IMG/VR virus record: IMGVR_UViG_3300011261_000048
Location: 29,470-93,469 of that record
Length of the DNA: 64,000 bases
Origin: a virus
Strand: one strand, 5' to 3'
Part shown: positions 3,104-36,997 of the stretch, piece by piece
Numbering within the stretch: position 1 is the stretch's first letter
Layout: every line of letters begins with the position of its first letter
Notes under the pieces: model-generated
What the model saw: only the letters and a program-made list of their open reading frames with translations
Told to the model about the DNA's origin: nothing
Database searches by the model: none
Made by a program: the position numbers and the translations under genes

Positions 3104-3985
3104 TTATTTTGCTGCTTTAACTCTTGCTTGAATACTTAATAATAAATCTTGTTGTGCAGGAGCTAATAAATACTCTACTGCTACATCTATAGAAGCTACT
3201 TCTGCTTCTCCACATAAAGGATCTCCTCCTGGTAGAGAATACTTTCTTCCTTGTTTAATTACTACTCCTGCATCAACTGCTTCAGAGATAAGTAACTTCA
3301 TATCAAAAGCTTCTTTGTTTTCAACTATCTTAAGGAAAGTATCAATATCATCAGTAATAATCTTTCTAATTTCTGCAAATAAGAAAGAACCTTTAGATGA
3401 TTCAGATACTTTTCTCCCATATACCTTAAGGAAGTTAACCATGGCTTCTTTATCATCTTTAAGTTTCCCTAAAGCCATAAATGCTTCCATTTCTTTGTCT
3501 CCTTGAGATATAATCTTGTTAGTTTCATACTCTTCTGAAACCAAAGCATATCTATATGTTTTCTTCTTTAACATTGAATCTCCATCAGGAGCAATGAATA
3601 AAGTGTTTGCTCTTAAGATAATGTATATCAAGTAGTCTTTAGGACTTCTTAGATTAAGCTTAACTGTGTCTTTACCTAGCTTAGCTTTAATCTTATGCCA
3701 TTCATTATCTTTGTTTTTGTGCCAGTTTAAGTCTAAGTCTAACTCATACTCTAACCATTCTTGTTCTGCTTTACCTTCTTCACCTGGTAAAAAAGGCTTA
3801 ATTAAATTGTTTCTGTTATCAACAGGTAAACAATATGTTATAGTGCTACTTCCAAATAAGTAATATGCCTCATGTTCTGGGTCACTTACTAGTGGATTTC
3901 TAGCTCTCATAATAGGCTTGACAATGACTATTCTGTCTTCACCTGAAAATTTCTTAGCTTTTACAGCTTTCTTTGTTTCTTCCAT
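3104..3985 (-). CDS. Conserved crAss-like protein following the capsid gene
   Basis: 293 aa ORF; synteny with the crAss-like capsid module. Confidence 0.5.
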   Translation of the reverse strand: MEETKKAVKAKKFSGEDRIVIVKPIMRARNPLVSDPEHEAYYLFGSSTITYCLPVDNRNNLIKPFLPGEEGKAEQEWLEYELDLDLNWHKNKDNEWHKIKAKLGKDTVKLNLRSPKDYLIYIILRANTLFIAPDGDSMLKKKTYRYALVSEEYETNKIISQGDKEMEAFMALGKLKDDKEAMVNFLKVYGRKVSESSKGSFLFAEIRKIITDDIDTFLKIVENKEAFDMKLLISEAVDAGVVIKQGRKYSLPGGDPLCGEAEVASIDVAVEYLLAPAQQDLLLSIQARVKAAK

Positions 3986-6861: not shown

Positions 6862-9303
6862 CTACTTTTTAGGTGTAGCCTTTACCTGTGCCTTCTTAGC
6901 AGCTATTTCCTTTTCTTTCATCTCTTCTGTTTTCTTATTGTGTCTTACTGTCTCTTTTTGTGCTTCCTTCTTTATGTTATAATCTTTATTTATCTTATCT
7001 GCCTGAAGCTTAATACTTTCCAATGATGAGGCATCTGCAGAATCATTTCCACCATCATAATACCTTGAGTCTTCATTATCTTGTCTCATGCTTTCTATAG
7101 TAATCTTAGTGTCTAGGTCTTTATCTTGTCTAGCATCTTCTCTATCCCACTCTTCTCTTATAAAGTCTCTAGCTTTTTCTGCTTCTTCTGCCTGAGCTTT
7201 CATAGCTTCTTGTTGCATTTTTTGCTGTCTTTCTTCATTTTCCTGATCTCTTTGCATCTTCTCATTCTCACTTCTAGTAAGTTTCTTTCTAATAGAAGAA
7301 ATAGATTCAGTAGAGAAGATATCAATAAGTTGGGTGTAGTTAAGGATACCATTCTGAATACCTGCATGTGCAAGTTGTTTCATACTTTGCATTAATTCTG
7401 CAGAACCAGCCCCATCAGTAATAAGTAATCCGTATTCAGAATCCATAAAGTCTGTACCATCTAAGTTCATCATTACTGATGCACCGTCATCTAATACATA
7501 CTGTACCTTCTTATTCTTTTTATCTTTCCATGCATACTTAGCAGTTTGAAGTAAACATTCTAATACTCTAAGTTTAACTTGGTCATGTTCCATAAACCAA
7601 TACTCAGTAATATGTGAAGACTGTGCTACTTCTCTTTCTACATTACCTACAGCTTCTCTAGTAGATATCTGACCTTGTCTTGCTGCAGATACTCCTGCAA
7701 TTTCACCAAGTTCTTGTTTGATGTATGACATCATATTCATATACAACTGGATACTGTTACCCATTTCCATATCAATAACTGGAGCTTGTGCATTCATAGC
7801 ACCTGCCATCTTACCTTGAGCAGCACCTTTGTTACCTTCTTTGAAAGCGTCATAAACAGCAATGTTCATAGAATCTGCCATAGATAACCACTTGTCTATT
7901 TGCCAACCTTCAGGAATTTCATGGATACCTAATCTCATGATTTTACCTTTATTCTTAGCAATCATTAACTCAGTGTTATAAGCTAAGATATTATATAAGT
8001 ATTGGTATGGTTTCATTCTATCCATAAGAGATACTCCTATGTTAGAATTAGTATTGTATATAGTCCCTACTATTCCTGGATGGCATTTAGAAGGGTTTTC
8101 CATAGATCTGTACTGAACCTTCTTAGGTTGCATTCTTACATAGATAGCATTTATATCATTGTCATCACCTACTCCGCCACCTATTTTATGGCCTTCCCAC
8201 CATTCTGATACCCAAAGGATAGTTTCTTCTTCTCCTTTAGTTTCATCTATAGTGTAGTTCTCATCTTGAAAACTGTAATCATATTCACCTTCTTCATTGA
8301 TAGACTTAACTTTCTTAAGCTTTCTCATAGATTTCCAGTAAGCTTTTACTACTCTAATATTACCAGAGCCGTCAAATGTAGAACCATAAGAAGTGTCATT
8401 TTCTAAAAAGGATACGTTAATGGTATCATCTAGCTTTAATGTCAAATCAGGTTTACTACCTATATCTATAGCAGATTCTCCTGAAGAGTTACCTACCATA
8501 TCATTTTCTATTCTAGTTATCTCCTGTGGAGTAAGCTCATCATGATACTCATCTATAATTTGTCCTGGGCTCATATAGCCTGATATAGTTATAATATCAG
8601 CATCTTCTATTTGATTACTTTCTCCAGACCTTACTGTATTGACATTAAGTACATTAAGTATCTTAACTACAGGTTCACCTGCTATAATATCAATAAGGTA
8701 AGCTTCTTCAGCACTAATCAGTGCATTTTTAAATCCTTTAGCAAATAAGTTATCTAACTTAAGATGCTTATATAAGTAAGTAAGTATCTGTGTACCTACT
8801 CTTTCTCTAGCAGATTGGTAATCAAAGTCTACATAATTCTGAAACTTCTTCATCTTCTCAGCCATCTCTTCTTCAGTAGATGACTCATCTTTGATGTCTT
8901 CAGTAATTATTTGAATAAGTTTTTGTTTAAGTTCTTCTTCTTTTTCAGAGATAGCATCAGCATTGATAACTCTAACTCTAAAATCAAATCTTCTTTTAAT
9001 AGATTCTCCTACAAGTAAATCAATTTTAGGATTAGCAATAGGATAGTTCTGCATCTTAGCAGGAGAAGTTAACCCCCCTAACTTATGCGGGTTACATACC
9101 CTTTCTACATCTGCCTGGTCCAAGATATCTGAATACAGGTCAAAGTTAATGCTCTTATTATAGTAAGATTGTCTTAGGGTATCACTACCCCAAATAGCTA
9201 AAGCTTCTGCCCCATTGACACATTCTTTTCTCCACTTAGGAGTTTTGCTACTAGTGGATTTCTTTTGTGAGGGGAATTGTATGTTGTTTCCGTTATTTTG
9301 CAT
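6862..9303 (-). CDS. Portal protein
   Basis: 813 aa; NYPIANPKIDLLVGE, SLMDRMKPYQYLYN, GVSAARQG motifs; adjacent to TerL. Confidence 0.9.
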   Translation of the reverse strand: MQNNGNNIQFPSQKKSTSSKTPKWRKECVNGAEALAIWGSDTLRQSYYNKSINFDLYSDILDQADVERVCNPHKLGGLTSPAKMQNYPIANPKIDLLVGESIKRRFDFRVRVINADAISEKEEELKQKLIQIITEDIKDESSTEEEMAEKMKKFQNYVDFDYQSARERVGTQILTYLYKHLKLDNLFAKGFKNALISAEEAYLIDIIAGEPVVKILNVLNVNTVRSGESNQIEDADIITISGYMSPGQIIDEYHDELTPQEITRIENDMVGNSSGESAIDIGSKPDLTLKLDDTINVSFLENDTSYGSTFDGSGNIRVVKAYWKSMRKLKKVKSINEEGEYDYSFQDENYTIDETKGEEETILWVSEWWEGHKIGGGVGDDNDINAIYVRMQPKKVQYRSMENPSKCHPGIVGTIYNTNSNIGVSLMDRMKPYQYLYNILAYNTELMIAKNKGKIMRLGIHEIPEGWQIDKWLSMADSMNIAVYDAFKEGNKGAAQGKMAGAMNAQAPVIDMEMGNSIQLYMNMMSYIKQELGEIAGVSAARQGQISTREAVGNVEREVAQSSHITEYWFMEHDQVKLRVLECLLQTAKYAWKDKKNKKVQYVLDDGASVMMNLDGTDFMDSEYGLLITDGAGSAELMQSMKQLAHAGIQNGILNYTQLIDIFSTESISSIRKKLTRSENEKMQRDQENEERQQKMQQEAMKAQAEEAEKARDFIREEWDREDARQDKDLDTKITIESMRQDNEDSRYYDGGNDSADASSLESIKLQADKINKDYNIKKEAQKETVRHNKKTEEMKEKEIAAKKAQVKATPKK

Positions 9304-16747: not shown

Positions 16748-16818
16748 TTTTGGGGAGAAGACTTGAACTCCTATTACCTGGACCAAAACCAGGTGTCCTG
16801 CCATTAGACGACCCCAAA
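16748..16818 (-). tRNA. tRNA-Gln(TTG)
   Basis: TTTGGGG/CCCCAAA acceptor, CCTGG-TTTTGGT-CCAGG anticodon arm, TTCAAGT T-loop. Confidence 0.9.
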
Positions 16819-16823
16819 ATATG

Positions 16824-16895
16824 TGGAGATAACAAGATTTGAACTTGTGTCCCTAGTTCTTCAGACTAGTGCTAGGCCAACTCAGCTATATCTCC
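16824..16895 (-). tRNA. tRNA-Phe(GAA)
   Basis: GGAGATA/TATCTCC acceptor, CTAGT-CTGAAGA-ACTAG anticodon arm, TTCAAAT T-loop. Confidence 0.9.
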
Positions 16896-16900
16896 ATATG

Positions 16901-16971
16901 TCTATAAGTCAAGATTCGAACTTGAGTACTCCTACGTCCAAGGTAGGCATGAAACCTGGCTTCGCTTATAG
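16901..16971 (-). tRNA. tRNA-Pro(TGG) with atypical short D-arm
   Basis: CTATAAG/CTTATAG acceptor, CCTAC-CTTGGAC-GTAGG anticodon arm, TTCGAAT T-loop. Confidence 0.8.
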
Positions 16972-19960: not shown

Positions 19961-20745
19961 TTAACTTCTATCCAATAGGAATATGTCCACTATAAATTAG
20001 CAACTGAAGGCACAAGTAATGTGGTAGCTATTAAATGTAACGTGTCCGCATTGACAGATGCCAAGGATATGAACCTTGTAGAAGTTAAACTTATTAAACT
20101 CTCATCCAATTGCAGGGATGGTCTATTCAATGGTATTATACAGAACAGTATAATGTTAGACATCAGTTAAAAGTCAAGGGCTAAGCAACCTTGTGAGGGT
20201 TTATATTTTATTAACCATAGTAAAAAAATTAAAGATAGTTGGGCAGACAACCTGCACTATGGTTATATTTTATTAAGAACCTTGCTCCAGTGAAGTAGAC
20301 GTAAAACTCTACCTGATGTGTGATGCTTGAGATGTAGACGGTGTACAACGTTGAAATCAAAGAGTAGCAGGTTCTTAACTTACTAATCACACCACTCCCA
20401 GTTAATGATGGGTCCACAAATAGTATAGTTTGGTGGTGTGTTTATTTATATCCCATCAAAGCCTCTTGTAGGTTAACCGATGCGTCAAAATAATACGACA
20501 GAGTAAGTTTAAATCTTACTGATGGAACACGTGATTGCTAATAACAATCTAGTACAACTCTGTACGATGAGAAAAGGGAGTAATTACCTTATGAGTTGCC
20601 TAGTAGTATAGGTTGTATACTACAGGATATGAATCCTAGTTTGAGAGACTGAATCTTAGTTCTAACTACAATAAAATATACGTAAGAAACCATGCAATTG
20701 AGTAGGTGGAGTATAGTAGGACAGCAGTAATGTTGAACGATTTTT
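19961..20745 (+). ncRNA. Tandem array of candidate structured ncRNAs, several with tRNA-like acceptor/T-arm ends
   Basis: About 790 nt without a credible ORF; successive units each closed by a long stem and separated by AT-rich spacers. Confidence 0.55.
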
Positions 20746-20768
20746 TTAATTAACCTTAAAACAATAAT

Positions 20769-21128
20769 ATGAAAGATAATAAAATCATAGTAGTAGGTGC
20801 AGATAATACTGGCCGTACTACATTAACAAAGAAAGAACATAATGATATTATACTTATAGGTGCAGACAACACTATAGAAGTAAATGGTGTAATATATAAA
20901 AGGAGAGCAAGCAAAGCGAGTACACCAATGTCACGAAGAGTTTCAAGTATAATGATGATGGCACAAATGTTTGGAGAAACTACTTATAGTACAAAGAAAC
21001 AAAGACAAAGACCTAATGTAATAATAGAAAAAGAGTTTGCTTTAATACAGCAAAAGAAATCTAACCTATCAAAAAGTGATAGAGATTGGGTAGAACATAT
21101 GTTTCATATGCAGTACGATAAACTATGA
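20769..21128 (+). CDS. Hypothetical early protein
   Basis: 119 aa; internal duplication IIVVGADNT / IILIGADNT. Confidence 0.65.
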   Translation: MKDNKIIVVGADNTGRTTLTKKEHNDIILIGADNTIEVNGVIYKRRASKASTPMSRRVSSIMMMAQMFGETTYSTKKQRQRPNVIIEKEFALIQQKKSNLSKSDRDWVEHMFHMQYDKL

Positions 21129-21508
21129 AAAACGTAACAGATATACCGTACAAAGTATTATATGTAGAACAATGTAAATTAGCAGGTTATCCTATAGGTA
21201 TGTCATTATATAAAGATATAATTAATGAGTATCCAGAGTATTTTCCTATAGAAGCAGAACATAGTAGGAAATGGGCGTTAATACCTGAAGAAGTACATAA
21301 ACAGTACAATAAAGAGTATTTAGAAGTATATAATAACTATATGAGTAATTTACCACATGAAGGTAAAGGTATAATGTATTTTATACGAAATCCGAAAGAC
21401 TATACTGAATGGAGTAAAGCATATAATGATGCAATAGAGAAATCAAAACCTCATTTAGATGCTATATATAAAAAACATTATAGTAAATATAATATTACAC
21501 TAACATAA
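21125..21508 (+). CDS. Hypothetical early protein
   Basis: 127 aa, ATGA overlap with the previous gene. Confidence 0.65.
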   Translation: MKNVTDIPYKVLYVEQCKLAGYPIGMSLYKDIINEYPEYFPIEAEHSRKWALIPEEVHKQYNKEYLEVYNNYMSNLPHEGKGIMYFIRNPKDYTEWSKAYNDAIEKSKPHLDAIYKKHYSKYNITLT

Positions 21509-21523
21509 CTAAAACTAAATAAT

Positions 21524-21721
21524 ATGGAAATATGGGATAGTAAACAAGGGAAGTTTATTCCTAGACCTAAAGAAATAGATGACTTCTTAAAGGATATAGA
21601 TGAAGTATGTAAGAAACATAATTTATCTATAAGCCATGAAGATGGTCATGGTGCTTTTGAAATAGAAAAATATGATAAGCAGAATATAATTTGGTTAAAT
21701 AACGCACTTAAAAGATATTGA
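21524..21721 (+). CDS. Hypothetical early protein
   Basis: 65 aa; CKKHNLSISHEDGHGAF motif. Confidence 0.65.
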   Translation: MEIWDSKQGKFIPRPKEIDDFLKDIDEVCKKHNLSISHEDGHGAFEIEKYDKQNIIWLNNALKRY

Positions 21722-21722
21722 C

Positions 21723-22094
21723 ATGAAAGAGCAACTAATAACAATTGAAACAGCTAAGTTAGCTAAAGAGAAAGGGTTTGATATACCACTACGTAGTCAA
21801 TACTATGAAAAAGGAAAAATAACTCAAGATATAACTGATGGTCAAAAATTAAGAGGAGGTAATTTTTATGCTGTAAACACTCAATCACTACTACAAAAAT
21901 GGTTACGGGAAAAATATAGTTTTGAAATAAATATCCATAGTTTTGAAACATGTGGTTGGTGGTACTATATTGGTTACATTGGCAACAATGCTAGTGAGAT
22001 AGACTCTTCAGAACATGAATGGTGGTTTGCAGATTATGAAGAAGCCCTAGAAGAAGGATTACAAGAAGCGTTAAAATTAATTAGTAATGAGTAG
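21723..22094 (+). CDS. Hypothetical protein, paralogue of 25649-26029
   Basis: Shared A..xKExGFD, W.R and YEEA pattern. Confidence 0.7.
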   Translation: MKEQLITIETAKLAKEKGFDIPLRSQYYEKGKITQDITDGQKLRGGNFYAVNTQSLLQKWLREKYSFEINIHSFETCGWWYYIGYIGNNASEIDSSEHEWWFADYEEALEEGLQEALKLISNE

Positions 22095-22335
22095 ACAGTT
22101 AGTAATGTACACAGGTGCAGGAGGTATTAAAATGTATATTAAATCATTTTTAATTGAAATGGGTAGTGTGGATGTTACTGATAAAATGGTAAATACTATT
22201 TATAATCAAATTAAGTACTACCCTGAAACAGCCGCTTTCTTTGGTGTTACTGTATCTAGGACTTTTAAACTACCTAGAAAGAAGAAAAAGAAGTATAAAC
22301 AATTAAAACTAAACGAAAATGAAAGAAGGAGATAA
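22087..22335 (+). CDS. Hypothetical protein
   Basis: 82 aa, overlapping operon. Confidence 0.55.
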   Translation: MSRQLVMYTGAGGIKMYIKSFLIEMGSVDVTDKMVNTIYNQIKYYPETAAFFGVTVSRTFKLPRKKKKKYKQLKLNENERRR

Positions 22336-22561
22336 AATAATATGGAATTCTGGATTTGGATATGAACTAGGTACATATATTTCAGATAAAGGAGTAATGT
22401 ATGATACAGTACTAATTAATTTAGAAACAGGTGTAGCACAAGGGAAATTAAGTGTACCTATACATCAGATAATACCTAGAAGTAAGAAAGCATTAGAGAT
22501 AATGCTACGTGAGTATCCTAGAGTACAAGTAAGTAAAACAATAACAACATTAACACATTAA
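22319..22561 (+). CDS. Hypothetical protein
   Basis: 80 aa, overlapping operon. Confidence 0.6.
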   Translation: MKEGDKIIWNSGFGYELGTYISDKGVMYDTVLINLETGVAQGKLSVPIHQIIPRSKKALEIMLREYPRVQVSKTITTLTH

Positions 22562-22583
22562 CAAACACTTAAAAATTAAAATT

Positions 22584-22817
22584 ATGAAATTATTACTATC
22601 AATACTATTAAGTATCTTATTGAGCAGCTGTCTTAAAAGTAATGAATATATGGATGCTGCAGAATTTTATAAAGTTTCTAAAGGGTGTATTGTTACAGGA
22701 GACTCTCCAGAAACTACTTTTATGCATCGAAGAATAACAGTAAAAACTACTACAGATGAATTTTTAACCTATATAGGTGAAGAATTATATTATGAAGTAG
22801 GAGATACTATAAAATAA
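22584..22817 (+). CDS. Putative lipoprotein
   Basis: MKLLLSILLSILLSSC signal peptide with lipobox Cys. Confidence 0.7.
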   Translation: MKLLLSILLSILLSSCLKSNEYMDAAEFYKVSKGCIVTGDSPETTFMHRRITVKTTTDEFLTYIGEELYYEVGDTIK

Positions 22818-22822
22818 TTACT

Positions 22823-23059
22823 ATGGGGAAATTAATGGATAGGTTAGAAAAACAACTAACTACAGAAAATAAGAAAGATGCAGAAGAATGTATAGAGATA
22901 TATAATTGGATTAAATCTACTGATAAAGATGGAAGAGTTTGGTCTAGTAGATGGGAGCCTTTAACAAATGTTAGATTTATTGGAACATACCCTAGTACAA
23001 GAATTTATAACCTTAATATTACTGGTAAAGCACTTCTAAAAGAACTAAGAACAGATTAA
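22823..23059 (+). CDS. Hypothetical protein
   Basis: 78 aa ORF in operon. Confidence 0.6.
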   Translation: MGKLMDRLEKQLTTENKKDAEECIEIYNWIKSTDKDGRVWSSRWEPLTNVRFIGTYPSTRIYNLNITGKALLKELRTD

Positions 23060-23063
23060 TAAT

Positions 23064-23410
23064 TTAAAAGTATAGGTTAAACCCTCATTAGGAGGGGGAC
23101 AGCAAATTAATTGAAAGAAAATAATATAATATTACCTATTGGGCCGATACTAAGGCTATAGTATGTTGAGATCATAACTACTGTTCTAAAAAGTGGTAAG
23201 TGTAGGAACTTATCAACTGACATGTGACTCTTAACTGAGAGCATGAGTGCAAGGCACACTAATATAATAAGCCTCTGAACAGGTACTTAAACAAGAAGTA
23301 ATAATATAGTATTTTTGGTGTGTGTATTCCACTACTAATTAAGGGATTTGTTTTACCGCCTGGAGCAATATGCTCAGTAGAAGGGTGTGAATAAGTGCTT
23401 ATACTTTTAA
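23064..23410 (+). ncRNA. Candidate large structured ncRNA (~350 nt)
   Basis: Ends pair: TTAAAAGTATAGG / CTTATACTTTTAA; no ORF; internal hairpins. Confidence 0.55.
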
Positions 23411-23452
23411 GTTATTATATTTAAATAATTATAAACCCAAAAAATCAAAACA

Positions 23453-23842
23453 ATGAAAAATCTAATTTTAACAGTAATATGTATTCTAGTGAGTACAGTT
23501 ACATTTGCAGGAGAACCAAAAAAAGATAAAGACAATACCTTTGAAATATCAGGGTACTTCTTAAAGAATAGTAATATCTCTTATGAAGTATATGAAGTAA
23601 CTAGTGACTCTTGGGAGTTGATAGAAAGTGGTAAAGGTATGAAACACTACAAGGTAGAGTTGGAGACTAACCATACATATGTAGTAATATTTAAGAAAGA
23701 TGAGAAACAGAAGCTATTATTTGTTGATGTTCAAGTTCCTTCTTATATTGATATAGATGTAGACTTTAAATATTTACAGGATGCTACTTTAAAATACACT
23801 ACTGATATGGAGGAGTATAAAGTAGCATTAATAAAGAAATAG
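23453..23842 (+). CDS. Secreted/periplasmic protein
   Basis: Signal peptide MKNLILTVICILVSTVTFA then a beta-rich domain. Confidence 0.7.
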   Translation: MKNLILTVICILVSTVTFAGEPKKDKDNTFEISGYFLKNSNISYEVYEVTSDSWELIESGKGMKHYKVELETNHTYVVIFKKDEKQKLLFVDVQVPSYIDIDVDFKYLQDATLKYTTDMEEYKVALIKK

Positions 23843-24017
23843 TAATATTATTTATGTTTTTACACGGAGGCCTTGTGTAATGTAATTAGCTTAAGCCTTA
23901 GGTACCATAAATTAGAATTAAATAGTGCCACGCTTCCCATGGTTTAAAGTACAAGGATAATGAAGGAAATAATACGTTCCCTAAGCACTATTTATTTATT
24001 AACTAAAATTAAAAAAT

Positions 24018-24170
24018 ATGCCAGATATAACAATGTGTAGGAATACTAAATGTATTCTAAAAGAGAAATGCTATAGATTTAAAGCAAAACCCAATCCACA
24101 TAGACAATCTTATAGTAGTTTTACTCCTGATAAAAGGGATAGATGTGATGGATTTGTAAAGATTGAATAA
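24018..24170 (+). CDS. Small Cys-containing protein (50 aa)
   Basis: Below the cutoff; MPDITMCRNTKCILKEKCYRFKA...C. Confidence 0.7.
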   Translation: MPDITMCRNTKCILKEKCYRFKAKPNPHRQSYSSFTPDKRDRCDGFVKIE

Positions 24171-24173
24171 ATT

Positions 24174-24387
24174 AAGACTCTCTGATTAAAGATAAACGTA
24201 TCATAACACACCTCTCATTGTGAAGTACGCCAGTAGTAGTATAAACTGTATCAGCAGTTGTGTTTATTGTAGATGTAATAGGTAAAGGTGTAGATATAAC
24301 ACCCCACTTAAAGTGATGCAGGTTCCCATATAAGTGAACTCGACTACAAGAAACTATTACCCCACTGAAATTTGGGCAGAGAGTTTT
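24174..24387 (+). ncRNA. Candidate structured ncRNA
   Basis: Closing stem AAGACTCTCTG / CAGAGAGTTTT; no ORF. Confidence 0.5.
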
Positions 24388-24400
24388 ATTATTAAAAGAA

Positions 24401-24640
24401 AAGACTAAACATTGAATCTTTGTGAATGAGAGAAGTCATAAAAATAGGAAAGATACCAAGACTTTTGATGGTAGATGCTTATTCACATAAAGATACTAGC
24501 AGTAATGTTAGATGTGTTGTCACCTTGAGAAAGTGATGCGAGCCATAAGTATATAGAAGCAAGTTAAAGGGATTCGACACTTAATCTTTGAACTTATGAG
24601 CTGGCTTTCCACAACACAAATGAGTTCTCAGCTAGTAGTT
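24401..24640 (+). ncRNA. Candidate pseudoknotted ncRNA
   Basis: Stems TGTGAATGAG/CTTATTCACA and GTGTTGT/ACAACAC; loop TGAGAA complementary to distal TTCTCA. Confidence 0.5.
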
Positions 24641-24822
24641 AAGGGGCTGGACACAGCATTTAGGCTGGTATAAACCTATCTAAAATGTGCATTAACAAGG
24701 TGATTAACTACGTGGACCCTACTCTTATTAGTCAAGTAGACTTGTTAAATATCTTAACATGTACCTGCGGGTATAGGATGAGCTAATAAGAAAGAGGGTA
24801 CTAATGGGTATAATACCTGAAA

Positions 24823-24895
24823 TGGACAGAAGTAGAAATAGAGAATACGTCTACATTGTAGAAAGGTGTGAGGTTGGAATCCTCACCTGTCCACA
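24823..24895 (+). ncRNA. tRNA-like RNA lacking an anticodon loop
   Basis: TGGACAG/CTGTCCA acceptor, D-arm, TCTAC-ATT-GTAGA, GTGAGG-TTGGAAT-CCTCAC. Confidence 0.75.
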
Positions 24896-24919
24896 ATTTA
24901 TTAAATAAAATTAAAGAAA

Positions 24920-25294
24920 ATGAGTTATAAATCAACAAGTACTAAAGGTTATATACCTTATGATTTTATTGAGCCAAATTTAGTAAGAGAACATAAAGAA
25001 GTAGATAGGTATATAAAATTATTGAATATAACTCTACCACAAGAGGAATTTATTCTTAAATGTTTGTTATCTCAGAAATGGGGTAATAAAATAATAATAG
25101 GGGAAATAAAAGAAATATCAAGAGAAAAAACTTTAGGTATGACCAAATATAAATTTTCATTAGTAGCTCCTTCAATGAATGTATCTTATTGTGATTCTAA
25201 CCCTTTTGAAAAAGAAGGTTGGTCATTAGATAATTTTGAAGATAGAGCTAGTTCTGTATATCATACTTTTATTAAAAGATTAATAAAATATTAA
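24920..25294 (+). CDS. Hypothetical protein
   Basis: 124 aa ORF with A-rich leader. Confidence 0.6.
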   Translation: MSYKSTSTKGYIPYDFIEPNLVREHKEVDRYIKLLNITLPQEEFILKCLLSQKWGNKIIIGEIKEISREKTLGMTKYKFSLVAPSMNVSYCDSNPFEKEGWSLDNFEDRASSVYHTFIKRLIKY

Positions 25295-25299
25295 AATAT

Positions 25300-25477
25300 A
25301 GAGTTCAGAGTACTGAAGATATTCAGTGATGAAGTAGACGTTGAAAAATTACGTAGCAATCACAGCATGCTAAGATGCGTTGTTTATTGTAAGCTACTAT
25401 TAACTCAGGGTATCCGAGACTATTGTGACTCAAGGGACTGAGATGTATTCCACTTAGAAATGGATGCTCTGAACTTT
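25300..25477 (+). ncRNA. Candidate structured ncRNA
   Basis: Closing stem AGAGTTCAGAG / CTCTGAACTTT; shares words with 20272-20378 and 24174-24387. Confidence 0.5.
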
Positions 25478-31198: not shown

Positions 31199-31586
31199 GG
31201 GCCTGTTCTGGAATTGCTTTATGTAGGAAAATTATAATATCAGCAGTCAGTGGTGACTTTAAATACTGTAGGTGAATTTCAATAAACGGAAATACAATCA
31301 AAAATGAAGTTGGCTCTAGAGCTGACGTAGAAGCTCCAATGATTAAGTTCTTTGGAGGTGACGTAACAGAAGGTTCTGTTATTGCTCCAGCAATGGAGAT
31401 GGCTATTGCAGCCTAAACCCAAAATAGTTTCTTAGTTCTATAAAAACTAAGTGGTGGAGGTTAACATCTAATGTTGACCCTAGACTAATTCTGAAGTTAG
31501 TCTTTAAATAAGTATCAGAGTAAGCTGTATAAATATTATATTTAGAATATGTGAATACAAGGGTTCGACTCCCTTCAGGTCCACTA
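31199..31586 (+). ncRNA. ssrA: tmRNA
   Basis: GGGCCTG/CAGGTCC acceptor with G3.U wobble, AAGGG-TTCGACT-CCCTT T-arm, internal tag frame 31288-31416 ending MAIAA*. Confidence 0.92.
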
Positions 31587-31587
31587 C

Positions 31588-31687
31588 AATAGTTAAAAGC
31601 GAAAATCTTTGGATAAGTAGAGTAGGTAAGAGTTAGATCTGAGATTTACCTTCTCCCTTTGAATAACGTGAGTAACTTTTAACTATT
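31588..31687 (+). ncRNA. Candidate structured RNA directly after tmRNA
   Basis: Perfect 12-bp closing stem AATAGTTAAAAG / CTTTTAACTATT; inner AGGTAA/TTACCT. Confidence 0.45.
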
Positions 31688-33505: not shown

Positions 33506-33796
33506 ATGGCAGCAACAAAAAAAGATGTATTGAGCTTAGCATTAGCTAACGTAAAGAAAACTGATATTGAAAGAGAATCAGAAGGAATCAGAAGAGCAGT
33601 AGCAGATAATGCTCATTCTTGGGGAAATGAATTACATAATGCAAAGAAAGCAGTTCAAACTGCAGGAGACAAGATTGCAGCATTAGCCTCTAATGTTAAC
33701 GCTACAGCAGCACAATGTCTACAAGCAAGTAGAGATTTGGCATTGGCGGAAGCTAATGTTAAAGCTATTGAAGAATTAATGGCAGTAAGATTTTAA
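33506..33796 (+). CDS. Ala-rich coiled-coil protein
   Basis: 96 aa; terminator hairpin at 33816-33844. Confidence 0.7.
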   Translation: MAATKKDVLSLALANVKKTDIERESEGIRRAVADNAHSWGNELHNAKKAVQTAGDKIAALASNVNATAAQCLQASRDLALAEANVKAIEELMAVRF

Positions 33797-33840
33797 TTAA
33801 TCTTATGATTATTATGCCCTCTACTTAATTGTAGGGGGCT

Positions 33841-34008
33841 TTTTATTAAATACTAGATTTGAGTTCGAATCTTGATAAGACTACGATAATCGCAGTTTTT
33901 CTTATCCTCTCTTCAACGATTAGAAATATTGAAAGACGGGATAAAGCAGCTATGCTTTGAAATAGCATTTAGTCTTATGGTATAAGGTATTACGAGTATT
34001 TAATAAAA
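33841..34008 (+). ncRNA. Circularly permuted tRNA-like RNA (YrlA-like topology)
   Basis: T-arm and 3' acceptor strand precede the 5' acceptor strand and D-arm; 14-bp terminal helix in place of the anticodon arm. Confidence 0.7.
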
Positions 34009-34022
34009 AATAATTAATTTAA

Positions 34023-36997
34023 ATGATATATTTAATAACTAATCAAACATCAATAGGTTTAGAAAAAGGTATCAAACAGGCTTCTTTACAGGAGTGTATT
34101 AGTTACCTTTCAGGTATACCTACGCTAGGATTAGATATAGAAACTACTAGGAAGTATAATAAGTATTTTGATTTTGAGGGTTTAGATCCTCACACATCTA
34201 AAATAGTAATGTTACAGATAGGAGATTTACATAATCAATATGTTATTGATACTAGAAATGTAGACATTAGTCCTTTAGTTCCTATGTTTGGTAATAAAGA
34301 TATCACCTTTGTAGGACACAATATAGCCTTTGAGTATAAACATATACTTAAGAACTATGGAGTAAGACTTGCAAAAGTATATGACACTATGATTTCAGAG
34401 CAGTTGCTTAACAATGATGGTGTACAGAAATCCTACTCTTTAAATGCTTTAAATGAGAAGTATTTAGATATTACAGTAGATAAAAGTATTAGGTTAGGTT
34501 TCCTTACTATAGGAGACAGGCCATTTAGTACACATGAAATAATTTATGGTGCTGATGATATTATTAATCCTTTAAGGATAAAGGCTTATCAAGAAGTACA
34601 GATGAGTGCAGAGCATAAGGATATAGAACCTGTGTTTAAATTAGAGATGCGTTTCCTATTAGGTAAGGCAGAGATGGAATATGTTGGAGTACCTTTTAAT
34701 AGGCACATATGGGAAAGTACTTATAATGAAAATTTAAAATTGTTTAATGAAAAAACAGTTGGGCTAAATGAATTTATTATTGCTAACTTCCCTAATAGCC
34801 CATTTATAGAAAGACAATTAGACTTATTTGATGAGTCTACTAAATGTTCTATACAATGGACTTCTTCTAAACAAGTTATAGAATTCTTAAACTTCTTAGG
34901 TATATGTCCTAGAGCAAAATCTAAAACTACTAAAAAGGTTAGAGATACAGCAGAGGCAAAAGAAGTAAGAGCTATACTATTAAGAGATGACCTTAGTGAT
35001 CTAATTAAGGACTTTGTTAAAAGCTACTTAAGTATGAAAGAGTTAGAGCAAAGAGTAACAACTTTTGGTATTAAATTCTTAAAGCATATTAATCCTATTA
35101 CAGGTAGAATACATAGTCATTATAAACAGATACTAAATACAGGAAGAATTTCTAGTAGTGGGCCCAATAACCAAAACATACCTGCTCAACATGAGTTTAG
35201 GAGTGCGTTTTGTGCTGATGAAGGCTCTTACTTAGTTAATGCAGATTACAGTGGTTTGACAATTCAACATATTTTACTAACTTTGTAGTAAAATAATACG
35301 TTATGAATCCAATTAATAAATTTACAGAAGAAAAAAATCAAGAAATACTTAGGTTATATGAAGAAGGTATGTCTCAAAAAGACATTGCTATACTTTACAA
35401 CACATATAATACGTCTATACGTAGAGTATTACTAAGAAATAATATAGCTATTAGAAGCAATAAAGAAATACAAAGTTACATTTCAACTAATCCGTTTAGG
35501 TTAGGAGAGGATGAATCTGATTACTTCTTTGGTTTACTAGTAGCTGATGGATGTATAAGTGCTAATAGACTTACATTAGGACTAAAAAAAGATGATATTT
35601 ATATGTTATATAGGTATGCTAACTTTTTAGGGACTAAAGTAAACGTAAATAGTTATTTTCATAAAAATCACAATAAATTTCAATATGAAGTTAAAGTTAG
35701 AAATGAAGAGATTACCATATTTTTACAAAAGCAAGCACAATTTATTAATAAAAGTGAAAAATTACAGTTATTTATACCGTTAACATGGGCTATACTTAGA
35801 GGTATAACTGATGGGGATGGGGGTTTTATAAAATTAGGCAAGACTAAAAATCAGTTAAGATGGTTTGTAGTAAGTAAGTCTAAGAAGTTTATTGTACAAA
35901 TTTATGAATTTCTAGTAAAAGAAGGGTATCACCCTACTATTACAGGTAATTATGAAAGTTGTTATTATGTAAACTTATATCGTAAAACAGAATTATGTAA
36001 TTTTTTTAAAGATTTATATCAAGATACAGATGTTTACTTAAAACGTAAATATTCTATTTTGGCCACCTTCTATGAGAAATCACTGAAGTAAAACAACCTA
36101 AATTCAGGGAAAGAGAGTATCTTCCAACCCTGAGCAAAATCTATACACCCTAGTGGTAAATTTAAGTATATAGAGATGTGCAGAGACTATAATGGTTGCA
36201 CCTAAACGAGAAAGTTAGACGTAGGTGAAGGGATAGTCCATCCAAGTTGAAGGACGCAAGAGTCAGTGATCTTAGTTAATAATTCTTTAGATGATGATTT
36301 ACTAGAGTTTTATGATAATGGAGGAGGAGATTTGCATAGTTTTGTTGCAAAGAAGATATGGCCAGATTTATTAGGAGGATTATCTCTAGATGAAGTCAAG
36401 GCAGAACATAAAGAAAAGAGACAAATTGCTAAGTCAGCAAACTTTGCCTTAGCCTATGGAGGTAATGGTTTTACTATTGCATCTAATTTAGGTATATCTG
36501 CTGCAGAAGGAGATAGAGTTTATGAGGATTATTTTAAGGCCTTTCCAGGATTAAAGACTTACTTTGAAAGTGTAGTTAAGCAATCATTGGCACAAGGGTA
36601 CATACTTATTGATCCTCATACAAAAAGAAAGTTTTTCTTTCCTTATATTAATGAATACTATAAGTATCAATATCAAGGTAATAAAAGAAAGGCTGATGAA
36701 TTAGAAGGTAAAATGTCTAGGGCAGCTATGAATTATTGTATTCAAGGTGCTGCAGGAAGTATGACAAAATATGCCATTGTATTAATTTATGAATGGTTAC
36801 TAGGTAATAAAGAATTACTAGAAAATATAAAATTAGTATTAACAGTCCATGATGAAATAATTCTAGAAGCTAAAGAAGGCTACCAAGACATTGCAAAAGA
36901 AAAACTATCTCACTATATGGTAGAGGCAGGAAGTGTGTGGTGTAAAAGAGTACCTATTAAGGCTGATGCTGTGATTTCAACAATATGGGAACATTAA
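34023..36997 (+). CDS. polA: Family A DNA polymerase, exons 34023-35255 and 36257-36997
   Basis: Exonuclease DIET; splicing restores motif A DYSG|QE; motif B RQIAKSANFALAYG; motif C TVHDE. Confidence 0.93.
35256..36256 (+). mobile_element. Group I intron in polA
   Basis: Exon ends in U, intron ends in G; guide GGCCAC near 36061; core words GCAGAGACTA and GGGATAGTCC. Confidence 0.9.
35303..36091 (+). CDS. Intron-encoded LAGLIDADG homing endonuclease with N-terminal HTH
   Basis: FFGLLVADG and ILRGITDGDG motifs. Confidence 0.9.
   Translation: MNPINKFTEEKNQEILRLYEEGMSQKDIAILYNTYNTSIRRVLLRNNIAIRSNKEIQSYISTNPFRLGEDESDYFFGLLVADGCISANRLTLGLKKDDIYMLYRYANFLGTKVNVNSYFHKNHNKFQYEVKVRNEEITIFLQKQAQFINKSEKLQLFIPLTWAILRGITDGDGGFIKLGKTKNQLRWFVVSKSKKFIVQIYEFLVKEGYHPTITGNYESCYYVNLYRKTELCNFFKDLYQDTDVYLKRKYSILATFYEKSLK

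Follow-up and report, generated by a model that had tools for sequence, protein, structure and literature searches.

RNAs that are shaped like a tRNA without being one are rare and informative; tmRNA, the YrlA RNAs, and viral tRNA-like ends are examples. YrlA RNAs are bound by Ro60/Rsr and modified by TruB and DusA. They carry T, acceptor-like, and D stem-loops, in that order, on a helix made of the RNA ends, with a GNCGAAN0-1G motif near the 5' end that is a likely Ro60/Rsr contact and with a Ro60 gene as neighbor (PMC4201824). RNase P cuts the M. smegmatis member, whose acceptor has 7 bp, in vitro, and in vivo this RNA is cleaved and gains CCA; YrlA RNAs with shorter stems are not cut by RNase P (Chen et al. 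2014, PMC4201824). Permuted tRNA genes occur in Cyanidioschyzon merolae, green algae, and Thermofilum pendens (PMC3978253), and two-piece tmRNA genes are reported from Alphaproteobacteria, some Betaproteobacteria, and cyanobacteria, as PMC3978253 cites Keiler et al. 2000. Non-tRNA substrates of RNase P include the C4 RNA of P1/P7, the M3 RNA of phi80, tmRNA precursors, and the his, tna, and rbs operon mRNAs (PMC11143913). A literature search for permuted tRNA mimics in crAss-like phages found no paper.

The DNA analyzed here, which we call the window, is a 64,000-nucleotide stretch of a 93.5-kb IMG/VR virus record that is 98% complete. The family A DNA polymerase gene (polA) of the window is closest to those of crAss-like phages of Bacteroidota, and near relatives of the phage are marine metagenome sequences; the host presumably belongs to the phylum Bacteroidota. 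Based on skew and open reading frames, a long plus-strand gene row extends from ~18 kb to ~56 kb. Within it, between the terminator hairpin of an upstream gene and polA, lies a conserved plus-strand RNA structure of roughly 170 nt (33840-34009), which is very probably a real, conserved, circularly permuted tRNA mimic. Its parts follow one another as closing helix (P1), variable region, T arm, acceptor 3' strand, insert, acceptor 5' strand, D arm, and P1 again:

33816-33847 (+): terminator-like hairpin of the upstream gene for a 96-aa protein, with its T tract; the hairpin itself is 33816-33839 and the T tract starts at 33840
33840-33854 (+): P1 closing helix, 5' strand, which pairs with 33995-34009 and stands where an anticodon stem would be
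33855-33858 (+): variable-region equivalent AGAT (positions 44-48), whose U48 can form a Levitt pair with A15
33859-33875 (+): T arm TTGAG-TTCGAAT-CTTGA, a 5-bp stem with two G-U pairs and a canonical T loop, TTCGAAT
33876-33883 (+): acceptor 3' strand TAAGACT and discriminator-like A73, with C74 next
33884-33970 (+): structured insert of 87 nt that closes the acceptor tip; 81-88 nt across lineages
33971-33977 (+): acceptor 5' strand AGTCTTA; the nucleotide before it, 33970, is U(-1), a potential partner of A73
33978-33994 (+): U8-G9 (TG, from 33978), D arm (33980-33993), and G26 (33994)
33995-34009 (+): P1 closing helix, 3' strand, partner of 33840-33854 (15 bp)
34023-35288 (+): first part of the family A DNA polymerase gene (3'-5' exonuclease and N-terminal polymerase part)

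Reading the sequence from 33600 to 34200, we recovered each piece that a sequence-only reading had listed, in the place it had given. Two lengths needed correction. The closing helix has the strands proposed (33841-33854/33995-34008) but gains the 33840/34009 pair and is 15 bp rather than 14 bp long, and the insert does lie between the two halves but measures 87 nt rather than 86 nt. The helix is uninterrupted, and the anticodon arm is absent, as that reading had held. The acceptor stem is 7 bp long and, with the T arm, gives a stack of 7 + 5 = 12 bp. The D arm of the window is GTA(T)/(T)TAC around the loop A14 A15 G18 G19 U A. The fold has a z-score of -3.6 to -4.6 by RNAfold. RNAfold on the window sequence alone favors a 7-bp hairpin, AGAUUUG/CGAAUCU, over the 5-bp T arm; we read a T arm here because comparison with relatives supports it, while the single-sequence fold does not.

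Both ends of the element abut other signals, also as first described. At the 5' end, the terminator hairpin has a 9-bp stem with six G-C pairs followed by TTTTTATT, and its T tract doubles as the outer part of the P1 5' strand; the hairpin is kept in the relatives L001 and L006, with one compensatory change. At the 3' end, position 34008 lies 14 nt from the polA start at 34023. The gap between P1 and polA is 12-15 nt and A/U rich in three lineages, and no terminator was found in it. Beyond this gap, the polymerase gene is split over 34023-36997 (+), with a C-terminal polymerase part (36266-36997) separated from the first part by a LAGLIDADG/HTH homing-endonuclease-like open reading frame (35303-36091). 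This arrangement suggests an intron or a similar insertion; group I intron models had no match.

Other tRNA-related genes are present in the phage. A one-piece tmRNA gene lies in the same gene row at 31199-31586 (+) and scores 53.1 bits with RF00023, whose gathering score is 47. The gene, which ARAGORN overlooked, has a canonical T arm, the G3-U70 pair, and the 3' end ACUA and lies in a region conserved in the relative L009 (1164-1982). A tRNA array at 16748-16971 (-) encodes tRNA-Pro(UGG), tRNA-Phe(GAA), and tRNA-Gln(UUG) with identical 5-nt CATAT spacers; ARAGORN does not call tRNA-Pro, whose Rfam score is only 33 bits. No CCA-adding enzyme, RNase Z-like enzyme, or SmpB was found in the phage.

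The same architecture occurs in the same place in two further lineages, L001 and L006/L007, whose polA products are 80% and 71% identical to that of the window. L001 is the same contig as L005, L009, and L026, and the count of three lineages leaves out the contigs of the polA homologues P0002 (75%) and P0004 (65%). Homologues that keep both halves with covariation, whose absence the sequence-only reading had named as grounds against itself, are therefore at hand, and its central claim of a circularly permuted tRNA mimic holds up. The helices compare as follows:

Acceptor: AGTCTTA/TAAGACT in the window, AATCTCT/AGGGATT in L001, AGTCTTT/GAAGACT in L006
T stem: TTGAG/CTTGA in the window, TTGAG/CTCAA in L001, (A)TAGG/CCTA(G) in L006
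Whole T arm of the relatives: TTGAG-GTCGAGA-CTCAA in L001, (A)TAGG-TTCAAAT-CCTA(G) in L006
D stem: GTA(T)/(T)TAC in the window, GTAT/ATAC in L001, GTGC/GCAC in L006
Closing helix: 15 bp in the window, 13 bp in L001, 15 + 5 bp with one T-T mismatch in L006

Stem sequences differ between the lineages, yet pairing persists. P1 is 13-21 bp long in the relatives and differs in sequence, with 5 of 13 pairs changed on both sides; the acceptor is constant at 7 bp, with four pairs changed on both sides; and the T arm covaries among the relatives. The D arm of L001 has a canonical 4-bp stem and a 9-nt loop, that of L006 has the loop AAATGGT, and the GG is kept in all. The variable region is AGTT in L001 and differs in L006. 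All four sequences (window, L001, L006, and L007) retain U(-1), A73, and C74.

RNAalifold recovered all of the tRNA-like helices and two insert helices, with compensatory changes in 17 of 49 pairs. In an alignment fitted to the model, 97.4% of cells in paired columns can pair, compared with 39-54% when the partners are slid. Observed values were reached by none of 500 shuffles on four of five measures and by 1 of 500 on the fifth, further pair types. The pattern is far beyond chance. Because the alignment was fitted to the model and holds only three independent lineages, these figures lean towards structure; the slid-partner controls preserve relatedness, and the contrast is still clear. There are ~17 G-U cells against at most 5 unpaired cells, which places the structure on the plus (coding) strand and argues for RNA rather than a DNA cruciform. 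We rejected coding on the minus strand (a 40-aa open reading frame, 33846-33968), as the frame is not kept and indels are not multiples of three.

The element has a narrow distribution in the sequences searched. A strict descriptor (T arm, 7-bp acceptor, GG-containing D arm, closing helix, and permuted order) run over 758 kb on both strands matched only this element and its L001 homologue. A blastn search against 50,697 phage records gave no match, and the element was absent upstream of polA at all 15 loci inspected in more distant relatives. A covariance model of the element (R1) matched nothing beyond the window and the three known homologue loci in a search of 92 further loci, three whole relatives, and Cellulophaga phage phi14:2, and wider pattern scans found no additional lineage.

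To gauge how tRNA-like the element is, we joined its halves in normal order and kept 5 bp of the closing helix, closed off by an arbitrary 7-nt loop. With default settings, ARAGORN called the depermuted window and L001 constructs tRNAs and called 0 of 500 controls of each construct with shuffled D and T regions. The depermuted L006 construct was called only at relaxed settings after manual choice. In native order, the element received no tRNA or permuted tmRNA call from ARAGORN and no RF00005 match, and a permissive Rfam scan of the region returned only terminator-driven noise. The window and L001 permit the tertiary contacts U8-A14, A15-U48, G18G19 with U55C56, and a 26-44 purine pair. L001 has G54, and L006 has C8 instead of U8 and a variable region that can pair with the opposite strand. 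An RNase P substrate is marked by a 12-bp acceptor/T-arm stack, a T/D-loop elbow, an unpaired leader, and cleavage 5' of position +1. Sequence features of this kind are present, namely, the 7 + 5-bp acceptor/T stack, G18G19, the T loop, and U(-1). The RNA may be a two-piece anticodon-less tRNA decoy and may regulate polA, as the sequence-only reading proposed. Having no anticodon loop, it cannot decoy anticodon nucleases.

YrlA (RF02553; bacteria and mycobacteriophages) is the family to which the element was first likened. The T-acceptor-D order on a terminal helix is identical, as the published structure bears out (PMC4201824), the tRNA tertiary pairs are possible (U8-A14, A15-U48, and G18G19 with the T loop), and the acceptor has the 7-bp length of the M. 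smegmatis member. Membership in the family, which had been offered as one reading, is not borne out. The RF02553 covariance model had no match in the region or the whole genome at E values up to 10, and a GNCGAAN0-1G search of the element and its flanks (60-65 nt upstream, 19-30 nt downstream) found none in the three lineages. YrlA genes have a Ro60/TROVE gene within ~4 kb on the same strand, whereas the phage has none anywhere; the absence of Ro60 noted earlier for the window extends to the whole 93-kb, 98% complete genome (TROVE, PF05731, E values up to 1), in which neither DUF2828 (PF11443) nor an RtcB gene was found. YrlA is a free-standing small RNA gene with a small loop where the element has an 81-88-nt structured insert and forms an mRNA leader directly before polA, in a phage whose host phylum is presumably Bacteroidota. 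We therefore rejected YrlA membership on the absence of an RF02553 match, the GNCGAA motif, and Ro60/TROVE/DUF2828/RtcB genes and on the long insert.

Permuted tRNA genes likewise place the 3' half before the 5' half and carry intervening sequence at the acceptor end, removable by RNase P and tRNase Z. They are cut at a bulge-helix-bulge and ligated, which restores a full tRNA with an anticodon, whereas the junction here is a plain 13-21-bp helix with no anticodon loop, in a phage of bacteria, which do not have that splicing endonuclease. The insert is 81-88 nt here and 1-74 bp there (Soma 2014, PMC3978253). Without an anticodon, a bulge-helix-bulge, or a phage RtcB, the element was rejected as a permuted tRNA gene.

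Two-piece tmRNA genes also place the T arm and the acceptor 3' strand first and replace the anticodon stem with a long helix, so that the products would remain paired as two pieces. Pair 3-70 of the element is U-A in all three lineages rather than G3-U70; it has no tag reading frame or pseudoknot series, and it has a true D stem. RF01849-RF01851 and RF00023 had no match to the element. The missing G3-U70, tag frame, and model match, together with the separate one-piece tmRNA of the phage, led us to reject this family too. The non-tRNA substrates of RNase P resemble the element in having an acceptor/T-arm-like stack within a longer transcript as a processing signal, but they are minimal mimics with no canonical T loop, D arm, or elbow, and none is circularly permuted. 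We conclude that the element is a new variant of YrlA-like tRNA mimic and a member of none of the compared families.

The insert is not a free spacer; it has covarying helices and an invariant block. Its first stem, of 6 bp (33887-33892/33917-33922), surrounds a pyrimidine-rich loop of 21-24 nt and is present in every lineage with a different sequence. A pyrimidine/purine helix, 33902-33915/33931-33944, has four compensatory pairs and could form a predicted pseudoknot with the 6-bp stem. A hairpin, SL-II, spans 33949-33966. In the count by helix, helix 4 has four compensatory pairs and helix 5 has one. Indels within the insert have lengths not divisible by three, and it is therefore noncoding; the mini-ORF AUG-CUU-UGA in SL-II is lost from one of the two copies of the block in another viral contig, L014.

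The invariant block covers 22 nt (33944-33965, +) and reads AAGCA(G/A)CTATGCTTTGAAATAG. The SL-II loop GCTTTGAA lies within it, and 5 nt separate the end of the block from the acceptor 5' strand. The phage genome has a single copy. The block (AAGCARCTATGCTTTGAAATAG) recurs, with extended identity, in unrelated viral contigs, at 2727-2750 of L012, 3830-3853 of L016, and 8270-8304 and 8503-8537 (-) of L014. In the HK97-like phage (L012/L016) it lies between the protease and major head genes, 25 nt before the head gene; in L014 it occurs twice, in a ~245-nt tandem repeat, each copy just before a small terminator hairpin. A search of bacterial genomes gave only two matches, apparently by chance. 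Pairing of the SL-II loop with the T loop is possible in the window and L006 but impossible in L001, and the idea was dropped.

Distant relatives point to how the element arose. The upstream 96-aa protein also precedes polA in L054/L055, and in L054 (2433-2500) the interval between that gene and the polA ATG holds nothing besides a terminator hairpin with its T tract and another 18 nt. Compared with such a spacer, the element is an insertion into a T-rich spacer, and the L054 arrangement likely represents the state before the insertion. The L054 spacer is too short for a promoter, which implies that polA of this group is transcribed through the hairpin. Based on this sequence comparison, the element is likely cotranscribed with polA by read-through. 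All phage tRNAs and the tmRNA carry A73-C74 and U(-1), as the element does; CATTT precedes the acceptor 5' strand in the window, comparable to the CATAT spacers of the tRNA array, and the element T arm shares 14 nt with that of tRNA-Pro. The element probably descends from a tandem tRNA pair, since the phage has a CATAT-spaced tRNA array and the insert is bordered by the A73-C74 and U(-1) that the phage tRNAs also have.

The element most likely serves as a docking or cutting site for host tRNA-processing enzymes. By analogy with published substrates, we tentatively favor a processing module, in which RNase P and 3' enzymes would cut the element, split the polA message from the upstream RNA, and free the insert. 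Transcription would read through the hairpin and make the element together with polA. The 12-bp acceptor/T stack and the D/T-loop elbow would present a substrate to host RNase P, which would cut between U33970 and A33971, and 3' tRNA processing would follow A33883, with CCA addition possible. With the two cuts made, the polA message would no longer be joined to the early RNA upstream, its 5' end would be held in a tRNA-like duplex of two pieces, and the conserved insert RNA would be set free. We favor processing because the published RNase P determinant is a 7-bp acceptor and the element keeps the 7 bp, the elbow, U(-1), and A73-C74. The tmRNA lies in the same plus-strand gene row, so RNase P must act on that RNA anyway. 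Several points weigh against processing. It would be odd for a spacer that is discarded to be conserved and structured like this insert, which suits a sealed RNA. A stem begins at C74 itself in L001 and L006, and U(-1) pairs with A73; these two features could hinder 3' and 5' cutting. Most transcripts may already end at the hairpin and T tract and never reach the element. Neither an RNase Z-like nor a CCA-adding enzyme is encoded by the phage, and the L006 lineage does not have U8 and has a variable region that can pair away.

The same insert conservation raises the possibility, which we consider real but doubtful, that the RNA stays uncut as a sealed, Y-RNA-like mimic, whose elbow and SL-II block would dock a host tRNA-elbow-binding factor and another protein. 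Its partner could be host Ro60/Rsr or some other protein, on the model of Y RNAs that tether Ro60 to PNPase. A sealed RNA would match the YrlA topology exactly (PMC4201824) and would account for an insert that is conserved and structured rather than drifting; the first stem of the insert could stack straight onto the acceptor in L001 and L006, and TROVE proteins do occur in Bacteroidota, as the control of our profile search showed. Set against this are the missing GNCGAAN0-1G motif and RF02553 match, the absence of TROVE and DUF2828 genes from the phage, and a closing helix that is a plain A-U duplex of unconserved sequence and hence a poor Ro site. The element also has no terminator of its own and continues straight into polA, and processing enzymes need just such an acceptor of exactly 7 bp with U(-1), A73, and C74. 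That continuity, with no terminator in the interval, and the constant position 12-15 nt of A/U-rich sequence from the AUG in three lineages would suit a cis-acting polA leader, whose fold sets translation or mRNA stability as a 5' stabilizer or as an operator for a tRNA-binding protein or the polymerase. The T4 gene 43 operator and the tRNA-like thrS operator are precedents. We consider a leader function unlikely, as relatives with the same gene pair do without the element, a tRNA elbow, 7-bp acceptor, and 87-nt insert far exceed the needs of a stabilizer or operator, and nothing links family A polymerases to tRNA-shaped operators.

A signal in the DNA is a quite improbable alternative to these RNA functions: either a polA promoter in the block/D-arm region or inverted repeats that mark a mobile element or replication origin. 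A sigma-70-like match (TTGAAA-N16-TATGCT) lies at 33929-33956, and TTGAAA-N18-TATAAG/TATAAC is found in the window and L001; the 22-nt block has copies in phages that are unrelated, one of them 25 nt upstream of a major head gene, and the element is an insertion relative to L054. Yet L006 has TGCAAA in place of the -10-like hexamer, while compensatory change preserves its D-arm pairing, the -35 of the N16 candidate is unconserved, and a block present once in the genome is no reused promoter. The many G-U pairs on one strand favor RNA over a cruciform, the terminal repeats differ between lineages, unlike transposon ends, and no GC-skew turning point is present near 33.8 kb. An origin of replication was rejected because there is no skew extremum. 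A Bacteroidota-type promoter, TAGATTTG at 33854-33861, was likewise rejected, as it is unconserved in L001 and L006. The processed halves might also act, once CCA tailed, as a two-piece adaptor, an aminoacylatable tRNA- or tmRNA-like molecule with no anticodon. Two-piece tmRNA and permuted tRNA genes have the same permuted order (PMC3978253), A73, A15-U48, and G18G19 are present, and M. smegmatis YrlA gains CCA in vivo (PMC4201824). An adaptor is hardly plausible given an acceptor without G3-U70 that varies between lineages, and so provides no stable identity set, the lack of a tag reading frame or of any tmRNA/tRNA model match, and a phage that has no SmpB and already has a standard tmRNA.

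The early arm of the phage holds other structured noncoding RNA candidates. About ten further modules, at 19961-25477 and 31588-31687 (+), are each closed by a helix of 10-20 bp. Their z-scores range from -1.2 to -5.1, and none matches Rfam at E values up to 1. Two of them share a closing stem, TCCAAT, and a CAAGG/CCTTG hairpin beside the 3' strand. Blocks of 24240-24735 (+) are conserved in phi14:2 (L106) at 1362-1388 and 3119-3297. An intergenic region of phi14:2 is reported to yield abundant, stable early noncoding RNA (Drobysheva et al., bioRxiv 10.1101/2020.03.07.982082), and the matches fall inside this highly transcribed region. The 38-nt stretch 24240-24277 is identical in L032 (92-129), just upstream of the L032 polA. 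A second tRNA-like body, in normal order, lies at 24824-24893 (+), with a 6-bp acceptor (GGACAG/CTGTCC, then A), a 6-bp T stem with the loop TTGGAAT, and an "anticodon" hairpin loop of only 3 nt; neither ARAGORN nor Rfam called it.

A broader proposal is that Crassvirales carry an undescribed class of Ro60-independent permuted tRNA mimics. Here, the mimic would serve as punctuation in an early polycistronic RNA, with RNase P and 3' cuts and CCA addition leaving the polA message capped by a two-piece tRNA-like structure and freeing an 87-nt RNA with the 22-nt block. This proposal is unlikely to hold in full; if it does, one module couples mRNA maturation, small-RNA release, and tRNA mimicry. 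At this locus, the YrlA topology is found without Ro60, in a crAss-like phage, joined to the leader of a replication polymerase and with a conserved structured insert. If the element is processed, the phage matures its mRNA by tRNA punctuation in a bacterial host. If it stays sealed, this would indicate that Y-like RNAs have a Ro60-independent partner. With about eleven stem-closed modules in the early arm, the element offers a tractable way into the noncoding RNA content of Crassvirales.
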